From: Escherichia phage REP1
Sequence record: OQ174500.1
Direction: 5' to 3' (one strand)
Length of the DNA stretch: 64,000 bases
Positions 15,357 through 30,075 of this stretch are shown here, in pieces. Below the pieces are notes generated by a model. It had not been told where the DNA came from. It made no database searches and saw nothing but the letters and a program-made list of their open reading frames with translations. Position 1 is the first letter of the stretch, and each line of letters begins with the position of its first letter. The position numbers and the translations under genes are program-made.

Positions 15357-16043
15357 ATGAAACTGTCTAAAGATACTACTGCTCTGCTTAAAAATTTCGC
15401 TACTATTAACTCCGGTATTATGCTTAAATCCGGTCAATTTATTATGACTCGCGCAGTTAATGGTACAACTTATGCGGAAGCAAATATTTCTGACGTTATT
15501 GATTTTGATGTAGCAATTTACGATTTGAACGGTTTTCTCGGTATTCTGTCTCTAGTTAATGATGATGCAGAAATTTCCCAGTCAGAAGATGGAAATATTA
15601 AAATTGCTGATGCCCGTTCAACAATTTTTTGGCCAGCAGCCGATCCGAGTACAGTAGTTGCTCCTAATAAACCAATTCCATTCCCGGTAGCATCTGTTGT
15701 TACTGAAATTAAAGCTGAAGACCTTCAACAACTGTTGCGTGTATCTCGTGGTCTGCAAATTGATACAATTGCTATCACGGTAAAAGAAGGTAAAATCGTA
15801 ATTAACGGTTTTAATAAAGTAGAAGATTCTGCTCTGACCCGTGTTAAATATTCTTTGACTCTTGGTGATTATGATGGTGAAAATACATTTAATTTCATTA
15901 TCAATATGGCAAATATGAAAATGCAACCAGGAAATTATAAACTTCTGCTCTGGGCAAAAGGTAAACAAGGTGCTGCTAAATTTGAAGGTGAACATGCGAA
16001 TTATGTAGTAGCTCTTGAAGCTGATTCTACCCACGATTTTTAA
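15357..16043 (+). CDS. 45: sliding clamp gp45
   Basis: 228 aa; sequence matches T4 gp45. Confidence 0.95.
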   Translation: MKLSKDTTALLKNFATINSGIMLKSGQFIMTRAVNGTTYAEANISDVIDFDVAIYDLNGFLGILSLVNDDAEISQSEDGNIKIADARSTIFWPAADPSTVVAPNKPIPFPVASVVTEIKAEDLQQLLRVSRGLQIDTIAITVKEGKIVINGFNKVEDSALTRVKYSLTLGDYDGENTFNFIINMANMKMQPGNYKLLLWAKGKQGAAKFEGEHANYVVALEADSTHDF

Positions 16044-16065: not shown

Positions 16066-16094
16066 ATTTACACTAAAACTTGAATGAGGAAATT

Positions 16095-17054
16095 ATGATT
16101 ACCGTAAATGAAAAAGAACACATTCTTGAACAGAAATATCGTCCATCTACTATCGATGAATGTATTCTTCCCGCCTTTGATAAAGAAACCTTTAAATCTA
16201 TTACAAGTAAAGGTAAGATTCCACATATTATTCTTCATTCTCCTTCTCCAGGAACAGGTAAAACAACTGTAGCAAAAGCATTGTGTCATGATGTAAATGC
16301 TGATATGATGTTTGTAAATGGATCAGACTGTAAAATTGATTTCGTTCGTGGTCCTTTAACTAATTTTGCGAGTGCAGCTTCATTTGATGGTCGTCAAAAA
16401 GTAATCGTTATTGATGAATTTGACCGCTCAGGTTTAGCAGAATCTCAGCGACATCTTCGTTCCTTTATGGAAGCTTATAGTTCAAACTGTAGTATTATTA
16501 TTACTGCTAACAATATTGATGGTATTATTAAACCACTTCAGTCACGCTGCCGAGTTATTACGTTCGGTCAACCGACCGATGAAGATAAAATTGAAATGAT
16601 GAAGCAGATGATTCGTCGATTGACTGAAATCTGTAAACATGAAGGTATTGCTATAGCTGATATGAAAGTTGTAGCAGCTTTGGTTAAAAAGAATTTTCCT
16701 GATTTTCGTAAAACTATTGGCGAGCTCGATAGTTATTCATCTAAAGGTGTTTTGGATGCTGGTATTTTATCACTGGTTACTAACGATCGTGGTGCTATTG
16801 ATGATGTTCTTGAGTCTCTCAAAAATAAAGATGTTAAACAACTCAGAGCTTTAGCACCAAAATATGCAGCCGATTATTCGTGGTTCGTGGGTAAACTTGC
16901 CGAAGAAATCTATTCACGTGTAACTCCACAGAGTATTATTCGTATGTACGAAATTGTCGGCGAAAATAATCAGTATCATGGTATTGCAGCTAATACTGAA
17001 TTGCATTTAGCTTATCTTTTCATTCAATTAGCATGCGAAATGCAGTGGAAGTGA
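16095..17054 (+). CDS. 44: clamp loader large subunit gp44 (AAA+)
   Basis: 319 aa from ATG after GAGGAAA RBS (track ORF starts at upstream ATG 16080); Walker [18 protein letters not shown] motif. Confidence 0.95.
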
Positions 17055-17055
17055 T

Positions 17056-17619
17056 ATGAGCTTATTTGAAGATGATATTCAATTAAACGAGCATCAAGTT
17101 GCTTGGTATTCTAAAGATTGGACAGCTGTCCAATCTGCTGCTGATACTTTTAAAGAAAAAGCTGAAAATGAATTTTTTGAAATAATTGGAGCTATTAATA
17201 ATAAAACTAAATGCTCTATTGCTCAAAAAGATTATTCAAAATTCATGGTTGAAAATGCATTATCACAATTTCCAGAGTGCATGCCAGCTGTATATGCTAT
17301 GAATTTAATTGGATCAGGCTTAAGTGATGAAGCTCATTTTAATTATCTAATGGCTGCAGTTCCTCGTGGTAAAAGATATGGTAAATGGGCAAAACTAGTT
17401 GAAGATTCCACCGAAGTATTGATTATTAAGTTACTTGCTAAGCGGTATCAAGTTAATACAAATGATGCAATTAACTATAAATCAATTCTTACTAAAAATG
17501 GAAAACTACCTTTAGTATTAAAAGAACTTAAAGGATTAGTCACGGATGATTTTTTAAAAGAAGTGACTAAGAACGTAAAAGAACAGAAACAACTCAAAAA
17601 ACTAGCATTGGAATGGTAA
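17056..17619 (+). CDS. 62: clamp loader small subunit gp62
   Basis: 187 aa; matches T4 gp62. Confidence 0.9.
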
Positions 17620-17620
17620 A

Positions 17621-17989
17621 ATGATTGAAATTACTCTTAAAAAACCTGAAGATTTTCTGAAAGTAAAAGAAACTTTGACTCGTATGGGAATTGCTAATAA
17701 TAAAGATAAAGTTCTGTATCAGTCCTGTCATATTCTTCAGAAAAAAGGACTATACTATATCGTTCATTTTAAAGAAATGCTTCGTATGGATGGCCGTCAA
17801 GTTGAAATGACAGAAGAAGATGAAGTTCGTCGTGATTCGATTGCATGGCTGTTAGAAGATTGGGGACTGATTGAAATCGTTCCTGGACAAAGAACTTTTA
17901 TGAAAGATTTAACTAATAACTTCCGAGTTATTTCTTTTAAACAAAAACATGAATGGAAACTCGTTCCTAAATATACGATTGGTAATTAA
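17621..17989 (+). CDS. regA: translational repressor RegA
   Basis: 122 aa; matches T4 RegA. Confidence 0.93.
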   Translation: MIEITLKKPEDFLKVKETLTRMGIANNKDKVLYQSCHILQKKGLYYIVHFKEMLRMDGRQVEMTEEDEVRRDSIAWLLEDWGLIEIVPGQRTFMKDLTNNFRVISFKQKHEWKLVPKYTIGN

Positions 17990-17999
17990 GGTAAATTAT

Positions 18000-18224
18000 A
18001 TGACACAATCAGAGATTCAGTTTACCGAAGCTTTTCTAATATTCGAAAATCTAAAACAAACATATGGTCTGTCTTCTACCCAACTGGTTTTTGACCTCCC
18101 GGAAGATAAACAAAAAGAATTCCAACGATTAGTTTACCCACGCCAACGCGCATTTCATGCGATTATCAAAACCACAAATAAAGATGGCAAGTCCGTTATA
18201 TCGCGTCGTACAATAGAAATTTAA
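18000..18224 (+). CDS. hypothetical protein between regA and gene 43
   Basis: 74 aa from ATG (M18 of track ORF 17949..18224); followed by terminator. Confidence 0.4.
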   Translation: MTQSEIQFTEAFLIFENLKQTYGLSSTQLVFDLPEDKQKEFQRLVYPRQRAFHAIIKTTNKDGKSVISRRTIEI

Positions 18225-18227
18225 AGC

Positions 18228-18252
18228 AAAGGGGCTTCGGCCCCTTATTTGG
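18228..18252 (+). terminator. rho-independent terminator AAGGGGCTTCGGCCCCTT + TTT
   Basis: GC hairpin with UUCG loop. Confidence 0.7.
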
Positions 18253-18265
18253 AGTATAATATATC

Positions 18266-18300
18266 AAGAGCCTAATAACTCGGGCTATAAACTAAGGAAT
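18266..18300 (+). promoter_or_regulatory. gene 43 translational operator-like hairpin adjacent to the Shine-Dalgarno
   Basis: GAGCCUAAUAACUCGGGCU hairpin then AAGGAA and ATG; resembles the T4 gp43 autoregulatory operator. Confidence 0.5.
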
Positions 18301-18304
18301 ATCT

Positions 18305-21001
18305 ATGAAAGAATTTTATATCTCTATCGAAACAGTCGGAAATAACATTGTTGAACGTTATATTGATGAAAATGGAAAGGAACGTACTCGTGAAGTAGAA
18401 TATCTTCCAACTATGTTTAGACACTGTAAGGAAGAATCAAAATACAAAGACATTTACGGTAAAAACTGTGCTCCTCAAAAATTTCCATCAATGAAAGATG
18501 CCCGAGATTGGATGAAACGAATGGAAGACATCGGTCTCGAAGCTCTCGGTATGAACGATTTTAAACTCGCTTATATCAGTGATACATACGGTTCAGAAAT
18601 TGTTTATGACCGAAAATTTGTTCGTGTAGCTAACTGTGACATTGAGGTTACTGGTGATAAATTTCCTGACCCAATGAAAGCTGAATATGAAATTGATGCT
18701 ATCACTCATTACGATTCAATTGATGATCGTTTTTATGTTTTCGACCTTTTGAATTCAATGTATGGTTCAGTATCAAAATGGGATGCAAAGTTAGCTGCTA
18801 AGCTTGACTGTGAAGGTGGTGATGAAGTTCCTCAAGAAATTCTTGACCGAGTAATTTATATGCCATTCGATAATGAGCGTGATATGCTCATGGAATATAT
18901 CAATCTCTGGGAACAGAAACGACCTGCTATTTTTACTGGTTGGAATATTGAGGGGTTTGACGTTCCGTATATCATGAATCGCGTTAAAATGGTTCTCGGT
19001 GAACGTAGTATGAAACGCTTCTCTCCAATCGGTCGAGTAAAATCTAAACTAATTCAAAATATGTACGGTAGCAAAGAAATTTATTCTATTGATGGCGTAT
19101 CTATTCTTGATTATTTAGATTTGTACAAGAAATTCGCTTTTACTAATTTGCCGTCATTCTCTTTGGAATCAGTTGCTCAACATGAAACCAAAAAAGGTAA
19201 ATTACCATACGACGGTCCTATTAATAAACTTCGTGAGACTAATCATCAACGATACATTAGTTATAACATCATTGACGTAGAATCAGTTCAAGCAATTGAT
19301 AAAATTCGCGGGTTTATCGATCTAGTTTTAAGTATGTCTTATTACGCTAAAATGCCTTTTTCCGGTGTAATGAGTCCTATTAAAACTTGGGATGCTATTA
19401 TTTTTAACTCATTGAAAGGTGAACATAAGGTTATTCCTCAACAAGGTTCGCACGTTAAACAGAGTTTTCCGGGTGCATTCGTATTTGAACCTAAACCAAT
19501 TGCTCGTCGATATATTATGAGTTTTGACTTGACGTCTCTGTATCCGAGCATTATTCGTCAGGTTAACATTAGTCCTGAGACTATTCGTGGACAGTTTAAA
19601 GTTCATCCAATTCATGAATATATCGCAGGAACAGCTCCTAAACCGAGTGATGAATATTCTTGTTCTCCGAATGGATGGATGTATGATAAGCATCAAGAAG
19701 GTATCATTCCAAAGGAAATCGCTAAAGTATTTTTCCAGCGTAAAGATTGGAAAAAGAAAATGTTCGCTGAAGAAATGAATGCCGAAGCTATTAAAAAGAT
19801 TATTATGAAAGGCGCAGGGTCCTGTTCAACTAAACCAGAAGTTGAACGATATGTTAAGTTCAGTGATGATTTCTTAAATGAACTATCGAATTATACTGAA
19901 TCTGTTCTCAATAGTCTGATTGAGGAATGTGAAAAAGCGGCTACACTTGCTAATACAAATCAACTGAACCGTAAAATTCTCATTAACAGTCTTTATGGTG
20001 CTCTTGGTAATATTCATTTCCGTTACTATGATTTGCGAAATGCTACTGCTATCACAATTTTCGGCCAAGTTGGTATTCAGTGGATTGCTCGTAAAATTAA
20101 TGAATATCTGAATAAAGTATGCGGAACTAATGGTGAAGATTTCATCGCAGCAGGTGATACTGATTCGGTATATGTTTGTGTAGATAAAGTTATTGAAAAA
20201 GTTGGTCTTGACCGATTCAAAGAGCAGAACGATTTGGTTGAATTCATGAATCAGTTCGGTAAGAAAAAGATGGAACCTATGATTGATGTTGCATATCGTG
20301 AGTTATGTGATTATATGAATAACCGCGAGCATCTGATGCATATGGACCGTGAAGCTATTTCTTGTCCTCCACTTGGTTCAAAGGGCGTTGGCGGATTTTG
20401 GAAAGCGAAAAAGCGTTATGCTCTGAACGTTTATGATATGGAAGATAAGCGTTTTGCTGAACCACATCTAAAAATCATGGGTATGGAAACTCAGCAGAGT
20501 TCAACGCCTAAAGCGGTCCAAGAAGCTCTCGAAGAAAGTATTCGTCGTATTCTTCAGGAAGGTGAAGAGTCTGTCCAAGAATATTACAAAAACTTCGAGA
20601 AAGAATATCGTCAACTTGACTATAAAGTTATTGCTGAAGTAAAAACTGCGAACGATATAGCGAAATATGATGATAAAGGTTGGCCAGGATTTAAATGCCC
20701 GTTCCATATTCGTGGTGTGCTAACTTATCGTCGAGCTGTTAGTGGTCTGGGTGTAGCTCCAATTTTGGATGGAAATAAGGTAATGGTTCTTCCATTGCGT
20801 GAAGGAAATCCATTTGGTGACAAGTGCATTGCTTGGCCGTCGGGCACAGAACTTCCAAAAGAAATTCGTTCTGATGTACTGTCTTGGATTGACTACTCAA
20901 CTTTGTTCCAAAAATCGTTTGTTAAACCGCTTGCGGGTATGTGTGAATCGGCTGGTATGGACTATGAAGAAAAAGCTTCGTTAGACTTCCTGTTTGGCTG
21001 A
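18305..21001 (+). CDS. 43: DNA polymerase gp43 (family B)
   Basis: 898 aa; pol motifs DLTSLYPS and GDTDS; matches T4 gp43. Confidence 0.97.
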   Translation: MKEFYISIETVGNNIVERYIDENGKERTREVEYLPTMFRHCKEESKYKDIYGKNCAPQKFPSMKDARDWMKRMEDIGLEALGMNDFKLAYISDTYGSEIVYDRKFVRVANCDIEVTGDKFPDPMKAEYEIDAITHYDSIDDRFYVFDLLNSMYGSVSKWDAKLAAKLDCEGGDEVPQEILDRVIYMPFDNERDMLMEYINLWEQKRPAIFTGWNIEGFDVPYIMNRVKMVLGERSMKRFSPIGRVKSKLIQNMYGSKEIYSIDGVSILDYLDLYKKFAFTNLPSFSLESVAQHETKKGKLPYDGPINKLRETNHQRYISYNIIDVESVQAIDKIRGFIDLVLSMSYYAKMPFSGVMSPIKTWDAIIFNSLKGEHKVIPQQGSHVKQSFPGAFVFEPKPIARRYIMSFDLTSLYPSIIRQVNISPETIRGQFKVHPIHEYIAGTAPKPSDEYSCSPNGWMYDKHQEGIIPKEIAKVFFQRKDWKKKMFAEEMNAEAIKKIIMKGAGSCSTKPEVERYVKFSDDFLNELSNYTESVLNSLIEECEKAATLANTNQLNRKILINSLYGALGNIHFRYYDLRNATAITIFGQVGIQWIARKINEYLNKVCGTNGEDFIAAGDTDSVYVCVDKVIEKVGLDRFKEQNDLVEFMNQFGKKKMEPMIDVAYRELCDYMNNREHLMHMDREAISCPPLGSKGVGGFWKAKKRYALNVYDMEDKRFAEPHLKIMGMETQQSSTPKAVQEALEESIRRILQEGEESVQEYYKNFEKEYRQLDYKVIAEVKTANDIAKYDDKGWPGFKCPFHIRGVLTYRRAVSGLGVAPILDGNKVMVLPLREGNPFGDKCIAWPSGTELPKEIRSDVLSWIDYSTLFQKSFVKPLAGMCESAGMDYEEKASLDFLFG

Positions 21002-21150: not shown

Positions 21151-21182
21151 AACTATCAGCTAATACGGATTTGGAGAATAAA

Positions 21183-21419
21183 ATGAAAATTGTTTATGGT
21201 TGCTTAGCAGTGTGTTTAGTTGCATTAGCAGCAGTTCCATTTGTTAGTGTTGAAAATGATACTCAACCTGTGATTGAATCTAGCACCGTTATTCACACTA
21301 ATGGTAAAATATCAGTTAAAATTGATGATAATCTTCATGTGAATACAAATGGATCTTTAGGTGTGCAAATGGGTAATACCTGCATAAGCACTACTGGAGT
21401 AATTACTACTTGCATTTGA
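21183..21419 (+). CDS. hypothetical secreted/membrane protein
   Basis: 78 aa from ATG; N-terminal hydrophobic signal-like segment. Confidence 0.5.
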   Translation: MKIVYGCLAVCLVALAAVPFVSVENDTQPVIESSTVIHTNGKISVKIDDNLHVNTNGSLGVQMGNTCISTTGVITTCI

Positions 21420-21429
21420 GGAAATTATT

Positions 21430-21810
21430 ATGAAAATCGCTATTTTGGTTATTGCATTAGGTCTTACTGGTTGTGTAGCTCAAGGACCGGTAGTAAATCA
21501 GTCTGATGTAGGAAAAATTGTAAACTGTTCAAGCAAATTTTATAATCCTAATGTCAAGTGTTATAAAGAAGCTCCAAAACAGACAGTAGAACAAATGCAG
21601 GCGAATTTTGACGAAGCTATTCGTCCAGATGAATCTGCTCAAGCATATCGTAATTCGGATGTAATTACACGCGAAGAAAAAATTGAAAACTACTGCGCCG
21701 AGCTTTGGGCTAATTGGGCTAATAATTACCAATGGCGTACTGGTAAAAATGCTCCGATGGAGTATGTAGTGAATTCTTATAATTCATGTGTAAAAAATTT
21801 GACTAAGTGA
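21430..21810 (+). CDS. putative lipoprotein
   Basis: 126 aa; signal peptide with lipobox LTGC. Confidence 0.5.
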   Translation: MKIAILVIALGLTGCVAQGPVVNQSDVGKIVNCSSKFYNPNVKCYKEAPKQTVEQMQANFDEAIRPDESAQAYRNSDVITREEKIENYCAELWANWANNYQWRTGKNAPMEYVVNSYNSCVKNLTK

Positions 21811-21817
21811 GGAAAAC

Positions 21818-22069
21818 ATGGAAACTTTAGTAGCAGGTTCAATTTTTATGGTTTTAGTTTCAGGCGTGTTGGCTATTATTATATACATGCTTCCATGGTT
21901 TATCGCCTTGATGCGTGGGTCAAAATCGACAGTAGGAATCTTTTTCACATCTTTACTGTTTAACTGGTCAATTATTGGTTGGTTTATTACATTTATTTGG
22001 TCAATTGCGGGTGAAACTAAAAAGTCTGCACAGCCAAATCAGGTAATTATCATCAGAGAGAAGGAATGA
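21818..22069 (+). CDS. imm: Imm-like membrane protein (superinfection immunity), by size and position
   Basis: 83 aa, two hydrophobic helices; just upstream of gene 42. Confidence 0.5.
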   Translation: METLVAGSIFMVLVSGVLAIIIYMLPWFIALMRGSKSTVGIFFTSLLFNWSIIGWFITFIWSIAGETKKSAQPNQVIIIREKE

Positions 22070-22215
22070 AAAGCAAAATTATAACAGTGTTGCTTTTAAT
22101 CTTGATGATTATAATAAGTATATACTATAGTGTAACGGTTCCTCTTATGATTCCAACTATTATTTTAGGTTGGGGTTTATTACTGTTACAAGTTAAATAT
22201 GAATGTATCAATTGA
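22066..22215 (+). CDS. hypothetical small membrane protein
   Basis: 49 aa hydrophobic ORF; ATGA overlap with upstream stop; not in ORF track (<60 aa). Confidence 0.35.
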   Translation: MKSKIITVLLLILMIIISIYYSVTVPLMIPTIILGWGLLLLQVKYECIN

Positions 22216-22222
22216 GGTTTAA

Positions 22223-22963
22223 ATGATTAGTGACTCTATGACAGTTGAAGAAATCCGTCTTCATTTGGGGCTTGCATTAAAAGAAAAAGATTTCGTAGTT
22301 GATAAAACTGGTGTTAAAACTATTGAAATTATTGGCGCATCATTTGTAGCAGATGAACCGTTTATTTTTGGCGCTCTTAATGATGAATACATTCAGCGTG
22401 AACTTGAATGGTATAAATCTAAAAGCTTGTTTGTTAAAGATATTCCAGGTGAAACACCAAAGATTTGGCAGCAGGTAGCATCTTCTAAAGGCGAAATTAA
22501 CTCGAATTATGGTTGGGCTATTTGGTCAGAAGATAACTATGCCCAGTATGATATGTGTTTAGCTGAACTTGGTCAAAATCCTGATTCTCGACGTGGTATC
22601 ATGATTTATACTCGTCCATCCATGCAATTTGATTACAATAAAGATGGTATGTCAGATTTCATGTGTACTAATACAGTACAGTACCTGATTCGTGATAAGA
22701 AAGTCAATGCAGTAGTAAGCATGCGCTCAAATGATGTGGTCTTCGGATTCCGTAATGATTATGCATGGCAAAAATACGTATTAGATAAATTAGTATCTGA
22801 TTTGAATGCCGGCGATTCAACTCGTCAGTATAAAGCAGGTTCTATTATATGGAATGTTGGAAGTCTTCATGTATATTCTCGTCATTTTTACTTGGTTGAT
22901 CATTGGTGGAATACTGGCGAAACTCATATTGTGAAAAAAGATTATAACGGTGAGTGGAAATGA
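22223..22963 (+). CDS. 42: dCMP hydroxymethylase
   Basis: 246 aa; matches T4 gp42. Confidence 0.95.
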   Translation: MISDSMTVEEIRLHLGLALKEKDFVVDKTGVKTIEIIGASFVADEPFIFGALNDEYIQRELEWYKSKSLFVKDIPGETPKIWQQVASSKGEINSNYGWAIWSEDNYAQYDMCLAELGQNPDSRRGIMIYTRPSMQFDYNKDGMSDFMCTNTVQYLIRDKKVNAVVSMRSNDVVFGFRNDYAWQKYVLDKLVSDLNAGDSTRQYKAGSIIWNVGSLHVYSRHFYLVDHWWNTGETHIVKKDYNGEWK

Positions 22964-29878: not shown

Positions 29879-30075
29879 ATTAACCCAACTAAAGCAAATG
29901 CTAAATCTACAAATGTATCAAGAGTAACCACTGGAATATTAATACCATGTGCAATTGCAATAGGTGATAGAATAAAGTTCCAGAGTAAAATTCCTACCAT
30001 AGCAGAAATAGTAAAAGCTATACGTTTTTTATTACCTTTTATGGCATTAACAAGTGCCATTAATTTTTGTACCAT
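29875..30075 (-). CDS. hypothetical small membrane protein encoded antisense to the early genes
   Basis: 66 aa, two hydrophobic segments; strong SD (AAGGAGGA) 3 nt upstream of ATG on - strand; AATAAATA late-promoter-like box upstream. Confidence 0.4.
   Translation of the reverse strand: MVQKLMALVNAIKGNKKRIAFTISAMVGILLWNFILSPIAIAHGINIPVVTLDTFVDLAFALVGLI

Follow-up and report, generated by a model that had tools for sequence, protein, structure and literature searches.

The regA-43 interval of a T-even phage: the T4 control region with a probable accessory gene placed ahead of it

The window, as we call the whole 64,000-nucleotide stretch of DNA analysed here, comes from a T-even phage, as seen from its RegA (100% identical to that of T4) and its gp43 (identical at 895 of 898 residues). 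The interval between its regA and gene 43 is very probably the control cassette of T4 with one accessory gene slotted in ahead of it. The control region, whose RNA operator ranks with the best studied in biology, is unchanged here, and the ORF added upstream of it is a genuine protein-coding gene. The novelty that a preliminary description had implied for this ORF does not hold up, because the ORF is already annotated in hundreds of T-even genomes and has a family of its own, PF25760.

Results

Layout of the regA-43 interval

Positions 17990-18304 are exactly the regA-43 intergenic space (Table 1), which is 315 nt long in the window compared to 78 nt in T4. In the T4 genome (NC_000866), the end of regA at 29972 and the start of gene 43 at 29893 leave a 78-nt spacer without an ORF; the preliminary description, which knew of no ORF at this position in T4, was right on this point. 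When the two intervals are aligned, window positions 18228-18304 (77 nt) match the T4 spacer base for base. It is this 3' part of the interval that the window shares with the T4 intercistronic region, with its terminator, promoter and operator, and the same layout is kept in RB69, JS10, VR7, CkP1, a Jiaodavirus phage, and KMB17. The sole difference from T4 is a segment of about 237 nt with the ORF, ORF 43.1, added precisely at the junction of the regA stop codon with the terminator. Alignment with T4 and RB69 had been proposed as a check on the first reading; it finds the ORF absent from T4, the junction empty in RB69, and the hairpin upstream of gene 43 conserved.

Table 1. Features of the regA-43 interval and its flanking genes, in window coordinates.
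Feature	Position	Strand	Basis or remark
Gene 45	15357-16043	+	
Gene 44	16080-17054	+	
Gene 62	17056-17619	+	
regA, translational repressor RegA, 122 aa	17621-17989	+	Pfam PF01818, E 1.2e-74; 100% amino acid identity to T4
regA stop codon UAA	17987-17989	+	
AAGG Shine-Dalgarno of the extra ORF	17988-17991	+	8 nt before the ATG; overlaps the regA stop codon
Extra ORF, "RB18 ORF43.1" family, 74 aa plus stop, allele A	18000-18224	+	PF25760, phrog_3826
Remaining 12-nt unit CAAAAAGAATTC; two-copy tandem in RB51 (CAAATAGAATTC CAAAAAGAATTC)	18111-18122	+	RB51 alignment
Predicted intrinsic-terminator hairpin, 7-bp stem, UUCG loop, with UUAUUU tail	18229-18250	+	Identical to T4
GGAG followed by the TATAAT -10-like hexamer (18255-18260); T4 gene 43 promoter region	18251-18260	+	
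Predicted gp43 translational operator: hairpin (18269-18286) and single-stranded stretch through the Shine-Dalgarno to the AUG	18269-18304	+	Identical to T4
Gene 43, DNA polymerase gp43, 898 aa; both the regulated gene and the repressor	18305-21001	+	895/898 residues as in T4 gp43

The control region upstream of gene 43

The hairpin close to the gene 43 Shine-Dalgarno had been described as resembling the T4 gp43 autoregulatory operator; it is in fact identical to it. The hairpin reads AGCCU-AAUAACUC-GGGCU, with a 5-bp stem and an 8-nt loop, and folds at -6.3 kcal/mol (z = -3.1), with only 1 of 200 shuffled sequences folding as well. The gene 43 Shine-Dalgarno, AAGGAA at 18294-18299, lies 7 nt 3' of the hairpin, followed by the ATG at 18305. 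We therefore find here the features that mark a T4-type operator: a short stem carrying the loop AAUAACUC, with its UAAC core, immediately 5' of the gene 43 Shine-Dalgarno and reaching over it. The operator hairpin is 18 bases long in T4 and 16 in RB69, with a UAAC-containing loop, and the T4 operator also includes bases overlapping the ribosome-binding site (PMC3014915). In the window, the whole element (hairpin, spacer, and Shine-Dalgarno) and its position relative to the AUG are the same as in T4, and the repressor, gp43, is 99.7% identical. Judged by its sequence, 18269-18304 is the T4 gp43 translational operator, beyond mere resemblance.

The T4 gene 43 operator is the RNA of the first SELEX experiment; in T4, free gp43 attaches to this site in the gene 43 mRNA and thereby represses its own synthesis. 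Free gp43 would likewise bind the hairpin-plus-Shine-Dalgarno operator in the window phage and turn off translation of gene 43. We infer this autorepression because the operator is identical to that of the pair studied in T4 and gp43 is identical at 895 of 898 residues. Compared to T4, only readthrough transcripts would differ, in carrying an extra 237 nt (the ORF) before the terminator, and the added ORF would leave the autoregulatory circuit untouched.

We compared the regA-43 intervals of eight other phages: VR7 (Gaprivervirus), JS10 (Dhakavirus), CkP1 and KMB17 (Karamvirus), RB69 (Mosigvirus), Klebsiella phage Biddle_MM4, a Jiaodavirus phage, and a Gelderlandvirus phage (Proteus phage ABTNLPp2). 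The stem of the operator hairpin varies as AGCCU/GGGCU, AGUC/GACU, AGAC/GUCU, GGUCU/GGACC, and AGACC/GGUCU, while the loop is kept as AAU-N-ACUC; across 8 sequence types, 7 of its 8 bases are invariant and the fourth alone varies. The terminator stem varies across genera as GGGGC/GCCCC, GGGAC/GUCCC, and GGGCC/GGCCC, again with its UUCG loop kept. In these short alignments, which were anchored by hand on the loops and so favour structure, 90% of the operator cells are paired, with changes on both sides in 4 of the 5 stem pairs (8 sequence types; covariation score 0.95, compared to at most 0.18 for slid partners), and 98% of the terminator cells are paired, with compensatory changes in 3 of 7 pairs (7 sequence types; slid controls collapse). 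Both hairpins covary in Tequatrovirus, Gaprivervirus, Dhakavirus, Karamvirus, Mosigvirus, and Jiaodavirus. A permissive Rfam scan of positions 17800-18500 gave chance-level matches only, so the gp43 operator is not among the Rfam models.

The strong terminator that had been placed after the ORF is borne out as well. The hairpin AAGGGGC-UUCG-GCCCCUU occupies 18229-18246, with UUAUUU next; it folds at -13.1 kcal/mol (z = -2.4) and is identical to that of T4. A stable G+C-rich hairpin followed by a U-run, as expected of an intrinsic terminator, is thus found at 18229-18250, with the U-run interrupted. A consensus terminator scan called the site on the minus strand only, because extension of the stem consumes the U-tail; the record of phage G50 annotates the hairpin as a terminator. 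The match to T4 argues that the UUCG hairpin is T4's own regA-distal terminator, and transcripts of 45-44-62-regA, with or without the ORF, would end at this predicted site.

Downstream of the terminator, the TATAAT hexamer lies within GGAGTATAAT, which is kept in T4, JS10, RB69, Biddle_MM4, the Jiaodavirus phage, and KMB17. A consensus promoter scan found no sigma-70 promoter at TATAAT, because there is no -35 element; gene 43 mRNA would begin just 3' of the hexamer. We do not claim the GCTT in the terminator loop as a MotA box, given that its spacing to TATAAT is about 15 nt and that it is not kept in VR7, JS10, and RB69. Directly 5' of TATAAT is a GGAG, at 18251-18254, which is conserved within GGAGTATAAT. 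GGAG is the target motif of the RegB endoribonuclease. Synthesis of gp43 is stimulated by RegB processing (PMC3014915).

The extra ORF and its translation

The preliminary description had placed a 74-aa ORF with its own ribosome-binding site between regA and gene 43, and this proves correct. The ORF runs from the ATG at 18000 to the TAA at 18222-18224 (225 nt, 74 codons), preceded by AAGG at 17988-17991, and the initiation region (17985-18020) is unstructured, at 0 kcal/mol. A 91-aa version starting at 17949, from a mechanical list of ORFs, was rejected, since it would begin within regA, out of the regA frame. We likewise treat the N-terminal extensions of six database entries as over-long gene calls.

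The product has a 100% match in a hypothetical protein of Escherichia phage REP1. With Pfam PF25760 ("Phage RB18 ORF43.1 protein"; cut-off 27 bits) it scores 89.1 bits (E 1.7e-25), with residues 12-74 aligned to profile positions 3-69 of 69, and it also matches phrog_3826 (E 1.2e-27); both families are catalogued with unknown function. The ORF is annotated in RB51 and RB14 as "RB32ORF047c, similar to RB18 43.1" and is also annotated in RB32, in each case as a hypothetical gene; it is left out of some annotations, including those of ECML-363 and RB68. The name 43.1 derives from the position between regA and gene 43. The members known as PF25760, phrog_3826, and RB32ORF047c share with the window ORF the same length, the same regA-43 position, and the same predicted fold. 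Within the family, the window ORF is an allele of the RB51 type that differs in having 74 rather than 78 residues, with 4 residues missing in helix 2.

Several observations show that the ORF at 18000-18224 truly codes for a protein. In four genera, alleles with no more than 32-55% identity all keep the frame open, and 13 columns of the alignment are invariant. The dN/dS ratio (Nei-Gojobori) is 0.16 between VR7 and JS10, and 0.19 between RB14 and a metagenomic homologue.

The ORF is closely joined to regA. In most lineages its ATG lies 1 nt past the regA stop codon or overlaps it: the junction is UAAUAUG in RB14 and JS10, UAAAUG in VR7, and the overlapping UAAUG in CkP1. The window allele, unlike most lineages, has a 10-nt spacer after regA and its own Shine-Dalgarno. 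Translation would start from this AAGG site in the window allele and by stop-start coupling to regA in RB14, JS10, VR7, and CkP1. Because it has no promoter of its own and lies upstream of the terminator, the ORF is expected to be co-transcribed with 45-44-62-regA, as the fifth cistron of that unit, and would share the early and middle transcripts that carry the clamp, clamp-loader, and regA genes. AU-rich sites of the kind found where the ORF begins are said to be recognised by RegA (PMC3014915); by analogy, it is plausible that the AU-rich start region of the ORF, which contains the UAA of regA, is a RegA target.

Predicted structure and searches

An AlphaFold2 model built from a 13-sequence alignment has a mean pLDDT of 88.5. 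In this model, a helix at residues 3-22 is followed by a structured loop with the conserved FDL, a second helix at 35-45, and a beta-hairpin formed by 51-59 and 65-73; the product is accordingly modelled as a small helix-helix-beta-hairpin protein. A Foldseek search of viral models returned family members only (42-43% identical, TM 0.74-0.79), and a Foldseek search of the PDB found no fold relative (best E 0.38, TM 0.2-0.3). A sequence profile search of the PDB and a search of NCBIfam gave nothing informative on the ORF, and no nuclease domain (GIY-YIG, HNH, or similar) was found by Pfam, NCBIfam, PDB sequence, or Foldseek searches. PADLOC, whose models cover defence systems rather than anti-defence proteins, matched 0 families with any of three alleles at E values up to 10. 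An exhaustive HMMER search of 1.8 billion representatives returned only the small ORF family and three long repetitive proteins; we treat the three long matches as spurious, the one that was inspected being made of tandemly repeated segments. A search of a literature library on ORF43.1, ORF047c, and PF25760 found no relevant paper.

Distribution, alleles, and exchange of the ORF

By tblastn, the ORF is present in about 305 phage records, 68 of which have a copy more than 90% identical (the window type, allele A) and 237 a copy less than 60% identical. The empty junction of the T4 type was found with a 41-nt probe in 235 records, including T4, T2, T6, RB3, and RB27; a short empty spacer is also present in RB69, Klebsiella phage Biddle_MM4, the Jiaodavirus phage, and the RB49-like phage W115. 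Wherever we located the ORF, it lies between regA and gene 43: this is the case in RB51, RB14, VR7, JS10, CkP1, KMB17, and a 173-kb metagenome contig.

A contrast between the ORF and its surroundings is seen when the window is compared to RB14. The DNA of regA is 100% identical and that of the first 600 nt of gene 43 is 98% identical, whereas the ORF is only 55% identical (45% for the protein); the RB32 and RB18 copies are of this same 45%-identical type. Because the ORF has diverged so far between flanks of 98-100% identity, two old alleles and a null state segregate in replication clusters that are nearly isogenic. Indeed, phages with identical RegA and gp43 carry allele A, the 45%-identical allele, or nothing.

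The empty junction of T4, in which GGTAATTAA is joined directly to GCAAGGGG, corresponds to the RB14 arrangement minus everything between the regA TAA and the ORF TAA. The endpoints of this deletion are the near-repeats TAATTAA and TAATTTAA, and the empty junction fits a simple microhomology deletion. The same deletion geometry is seen when RB69 is compared to a metagenomic contig, L015.

L015 (ENA ERZ27241652, k141_149291, 1-576) carries a window-type ORF, 92.9% identical in nucleotide sequence, between flanks of the RB69 type: identity is 96.5% at the regA 3' end and 100% at the gene 43 5' end when the contig is compared to RB69, in which the junction itself is empty. These flanks are only about 74% identical to the window, and the terminator and operator are of the RB69 type. 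This arrangement suggests that the ORF cassette passed between Tequatrovirus and Mosigvirus once the flanks had already diverged, with the proviso that it is a single 576-nt contig in which misassembly is possible.

Smaller changes are found in the ORF as well. Compared to RB51, the window ORF lacks 4 codons (QIEF), one helical turn of helix 2. NBEco003 has retained the other 12-nt unit than the window/REP1 lineage; therefore the 12-nt loss happened independently, at least 2 times, and in frame, and both losses took one such turn (4 residues) out of helix 2. Four copies of the ORF are frame-shifted or truncated. Within allele A, dN/dS is higher, at 0.5-0.6, and close copies have 1-3 differences that are all non-synonymous, while their flanks differ synonymously only; the counts are tiny, and these ratios fit relaxed constraint and adaptation alike.

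The slot between regA and gene 43 holds other cargo in two other genera. In ABTNLPp2 (Gelderlandvirus; L012, 1315-2019), an HNH homing-endonuclease gene is inserted after the terminator and TATAAT. In KMB17 (Karamvirus; L013, 1267-1630), there is a divergent PF25760 member (E 6.7e-19) together with a second, unrelated 53-aa ORF.

Other small ORFs near the interval

Two further small ORFs lie downstream of gene 43 on the plus strand. The first, at 21171-21419, encodes 82 aa from a TTG start (with an inner ATG at 21183), has a hydrophobic N-terminus resembling a signal or transmembrane segment, and is situated between gene 43 and an imm.1 homologue (21430-21810; Pfam DUF5481). It has no Pfam match. 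The equivalent site in T4 is just 183 non-coding nt, and the ORF appears, labelled hypothetical, in 325 phage records; it is therefore another accessory ORF of the presence/absence kind. The second, at 22066-22215, encodes a very hydrophobic protein of 49 aa between imm (21818-22069) and gene 42 (22223-22963), likewise with no Pfam match. Its T4 counterpart is a 153-nt imm-42 stretch without an annotated gene, and in RB69 a small ORF at this site is annotated as "similar to T4 42-imm intercistronic region".

Discussion

In its behaviour the regA-43 slot is like the plastic accessory slots described in T4-like phages (PMC2993671), with presence/absence polymorphism, diverged alleles in near-identical flanks, other cargo in other genera, and evidence for exchange between genera. 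It differs from the large hyperplastic regions in lying inside an otherwise strictly conserved cluster of replication genes.

What the product of ORF 43.1 does can be approached through this pattern. From sequence comparison, it may be an accessory protein that the phage can do without and that is directed at the host or at competitors, as in host takeover or counter-defence, and not a part of the replisome. We tentatively favour this reading because it shows no co-variation with its replisome neighbours, is missing from the model T-even phages, is deeply polymorphic, and seems to have moved laterally. Its constant place among the replication genes of four genera would fit a role in replication or translational control just as well. 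It would be a bolder proposal, and on the comparisons made here a rather unlikely one, that ORF 43.1 is either an exchanged host-interaction or counter-defence factor or a modulator of the RegA/gp43 circuit that T4 has lost.

The strongest competing explanation is that the protein is an auxiliary of replication or translation control, with the sliding clamp, gp43, or RegA as a possible partner and the adjustment of replication, or of repression by gp43 or RegA, as a possible task. The constant regA-43 position, the expected co-transcription with the clamp and clamp-loader genes, and the tight translational coupling to regA in most lineages all speak for such a role. So does the best-conserved stretch of the protein, [QE]-x-x-F-D-L, which in the window reads QLVFDL and which we take to recall, if loosely, bacterial clamp-binding peptides of the QLxLxL type. 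However, neither the Q nor the L of the putative motif is conserved (RB14 has ETLFDL), and the model places the motif where folding is predicted with confidence, not in a flexible tail. RegA, gp62, and gp43 are essentially identical with either allele or without the ORF, so there is no co-variation with the neighbouring proteins, and T4, T2, and T6 replicate normally without the ORF. We consider an auxiliary role of this kind improbable.

Much weaker is the proposal that the ORF is a selfish mobile cassette which, like the free-standing homing-endonuclease genes of T-even phages, spreads into empty regA-43 junctions. Its presence/absence, its precise boundaries between near-repeats that contain stop codons (AATTAA ... 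A(A/T)TTTAA), its cross-genus occurrence in the RB69-like contig, and the HNH endonuclease gene in the same slot of Proteus phage ABTNLPp2 would all suit such an element. The boundary near-repeats explain simple deletion equally, though, and homologous recombination in the conserved flanks suffices for exchange. In the family proteins, of 71-78 aa, searches with Pfam, PDB, and Foldseek found neither a nuclease nor a DNA-binding domain, and we know of no homing enzyme so small; a selfish cassette is thus very unlikely.

Least credible of all is that the ORF is non-functional, either a decaying remnant or a chance frame in inserted DNA: many relatives lack it, some copies are truncated or frame-shifted, some annotations (ECML-363, RB68) omit it, near-identical copies of allele A differ only non-synonymously, and a 12-nt unit has been lost twice, but the frame is open across 32-55% identity in four genera with dN/dS of 0.16-0.19 and 13 invariant columns, the indels are in frame, and the AlphaFold2 model is confident, with a fold common to distant homologues.

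Beyond annotation, the significance of these findings is small; the ORF is one of many small uncharacterised accessory genes of T-even phages. It nevertheless provides a clean natural experiment, with allele A, allele B, and the empty state found in replication clusters that are otherwise nearly isogenic, and its phenotype is therefore easily testable by swapping alleles into T4. If ORF 43.1 does encode an exchanged host-interaction or counter-defence factor, the divergence of the alleles, their frequent loss, and their transfer across genera would reflect an arms race with host functions.
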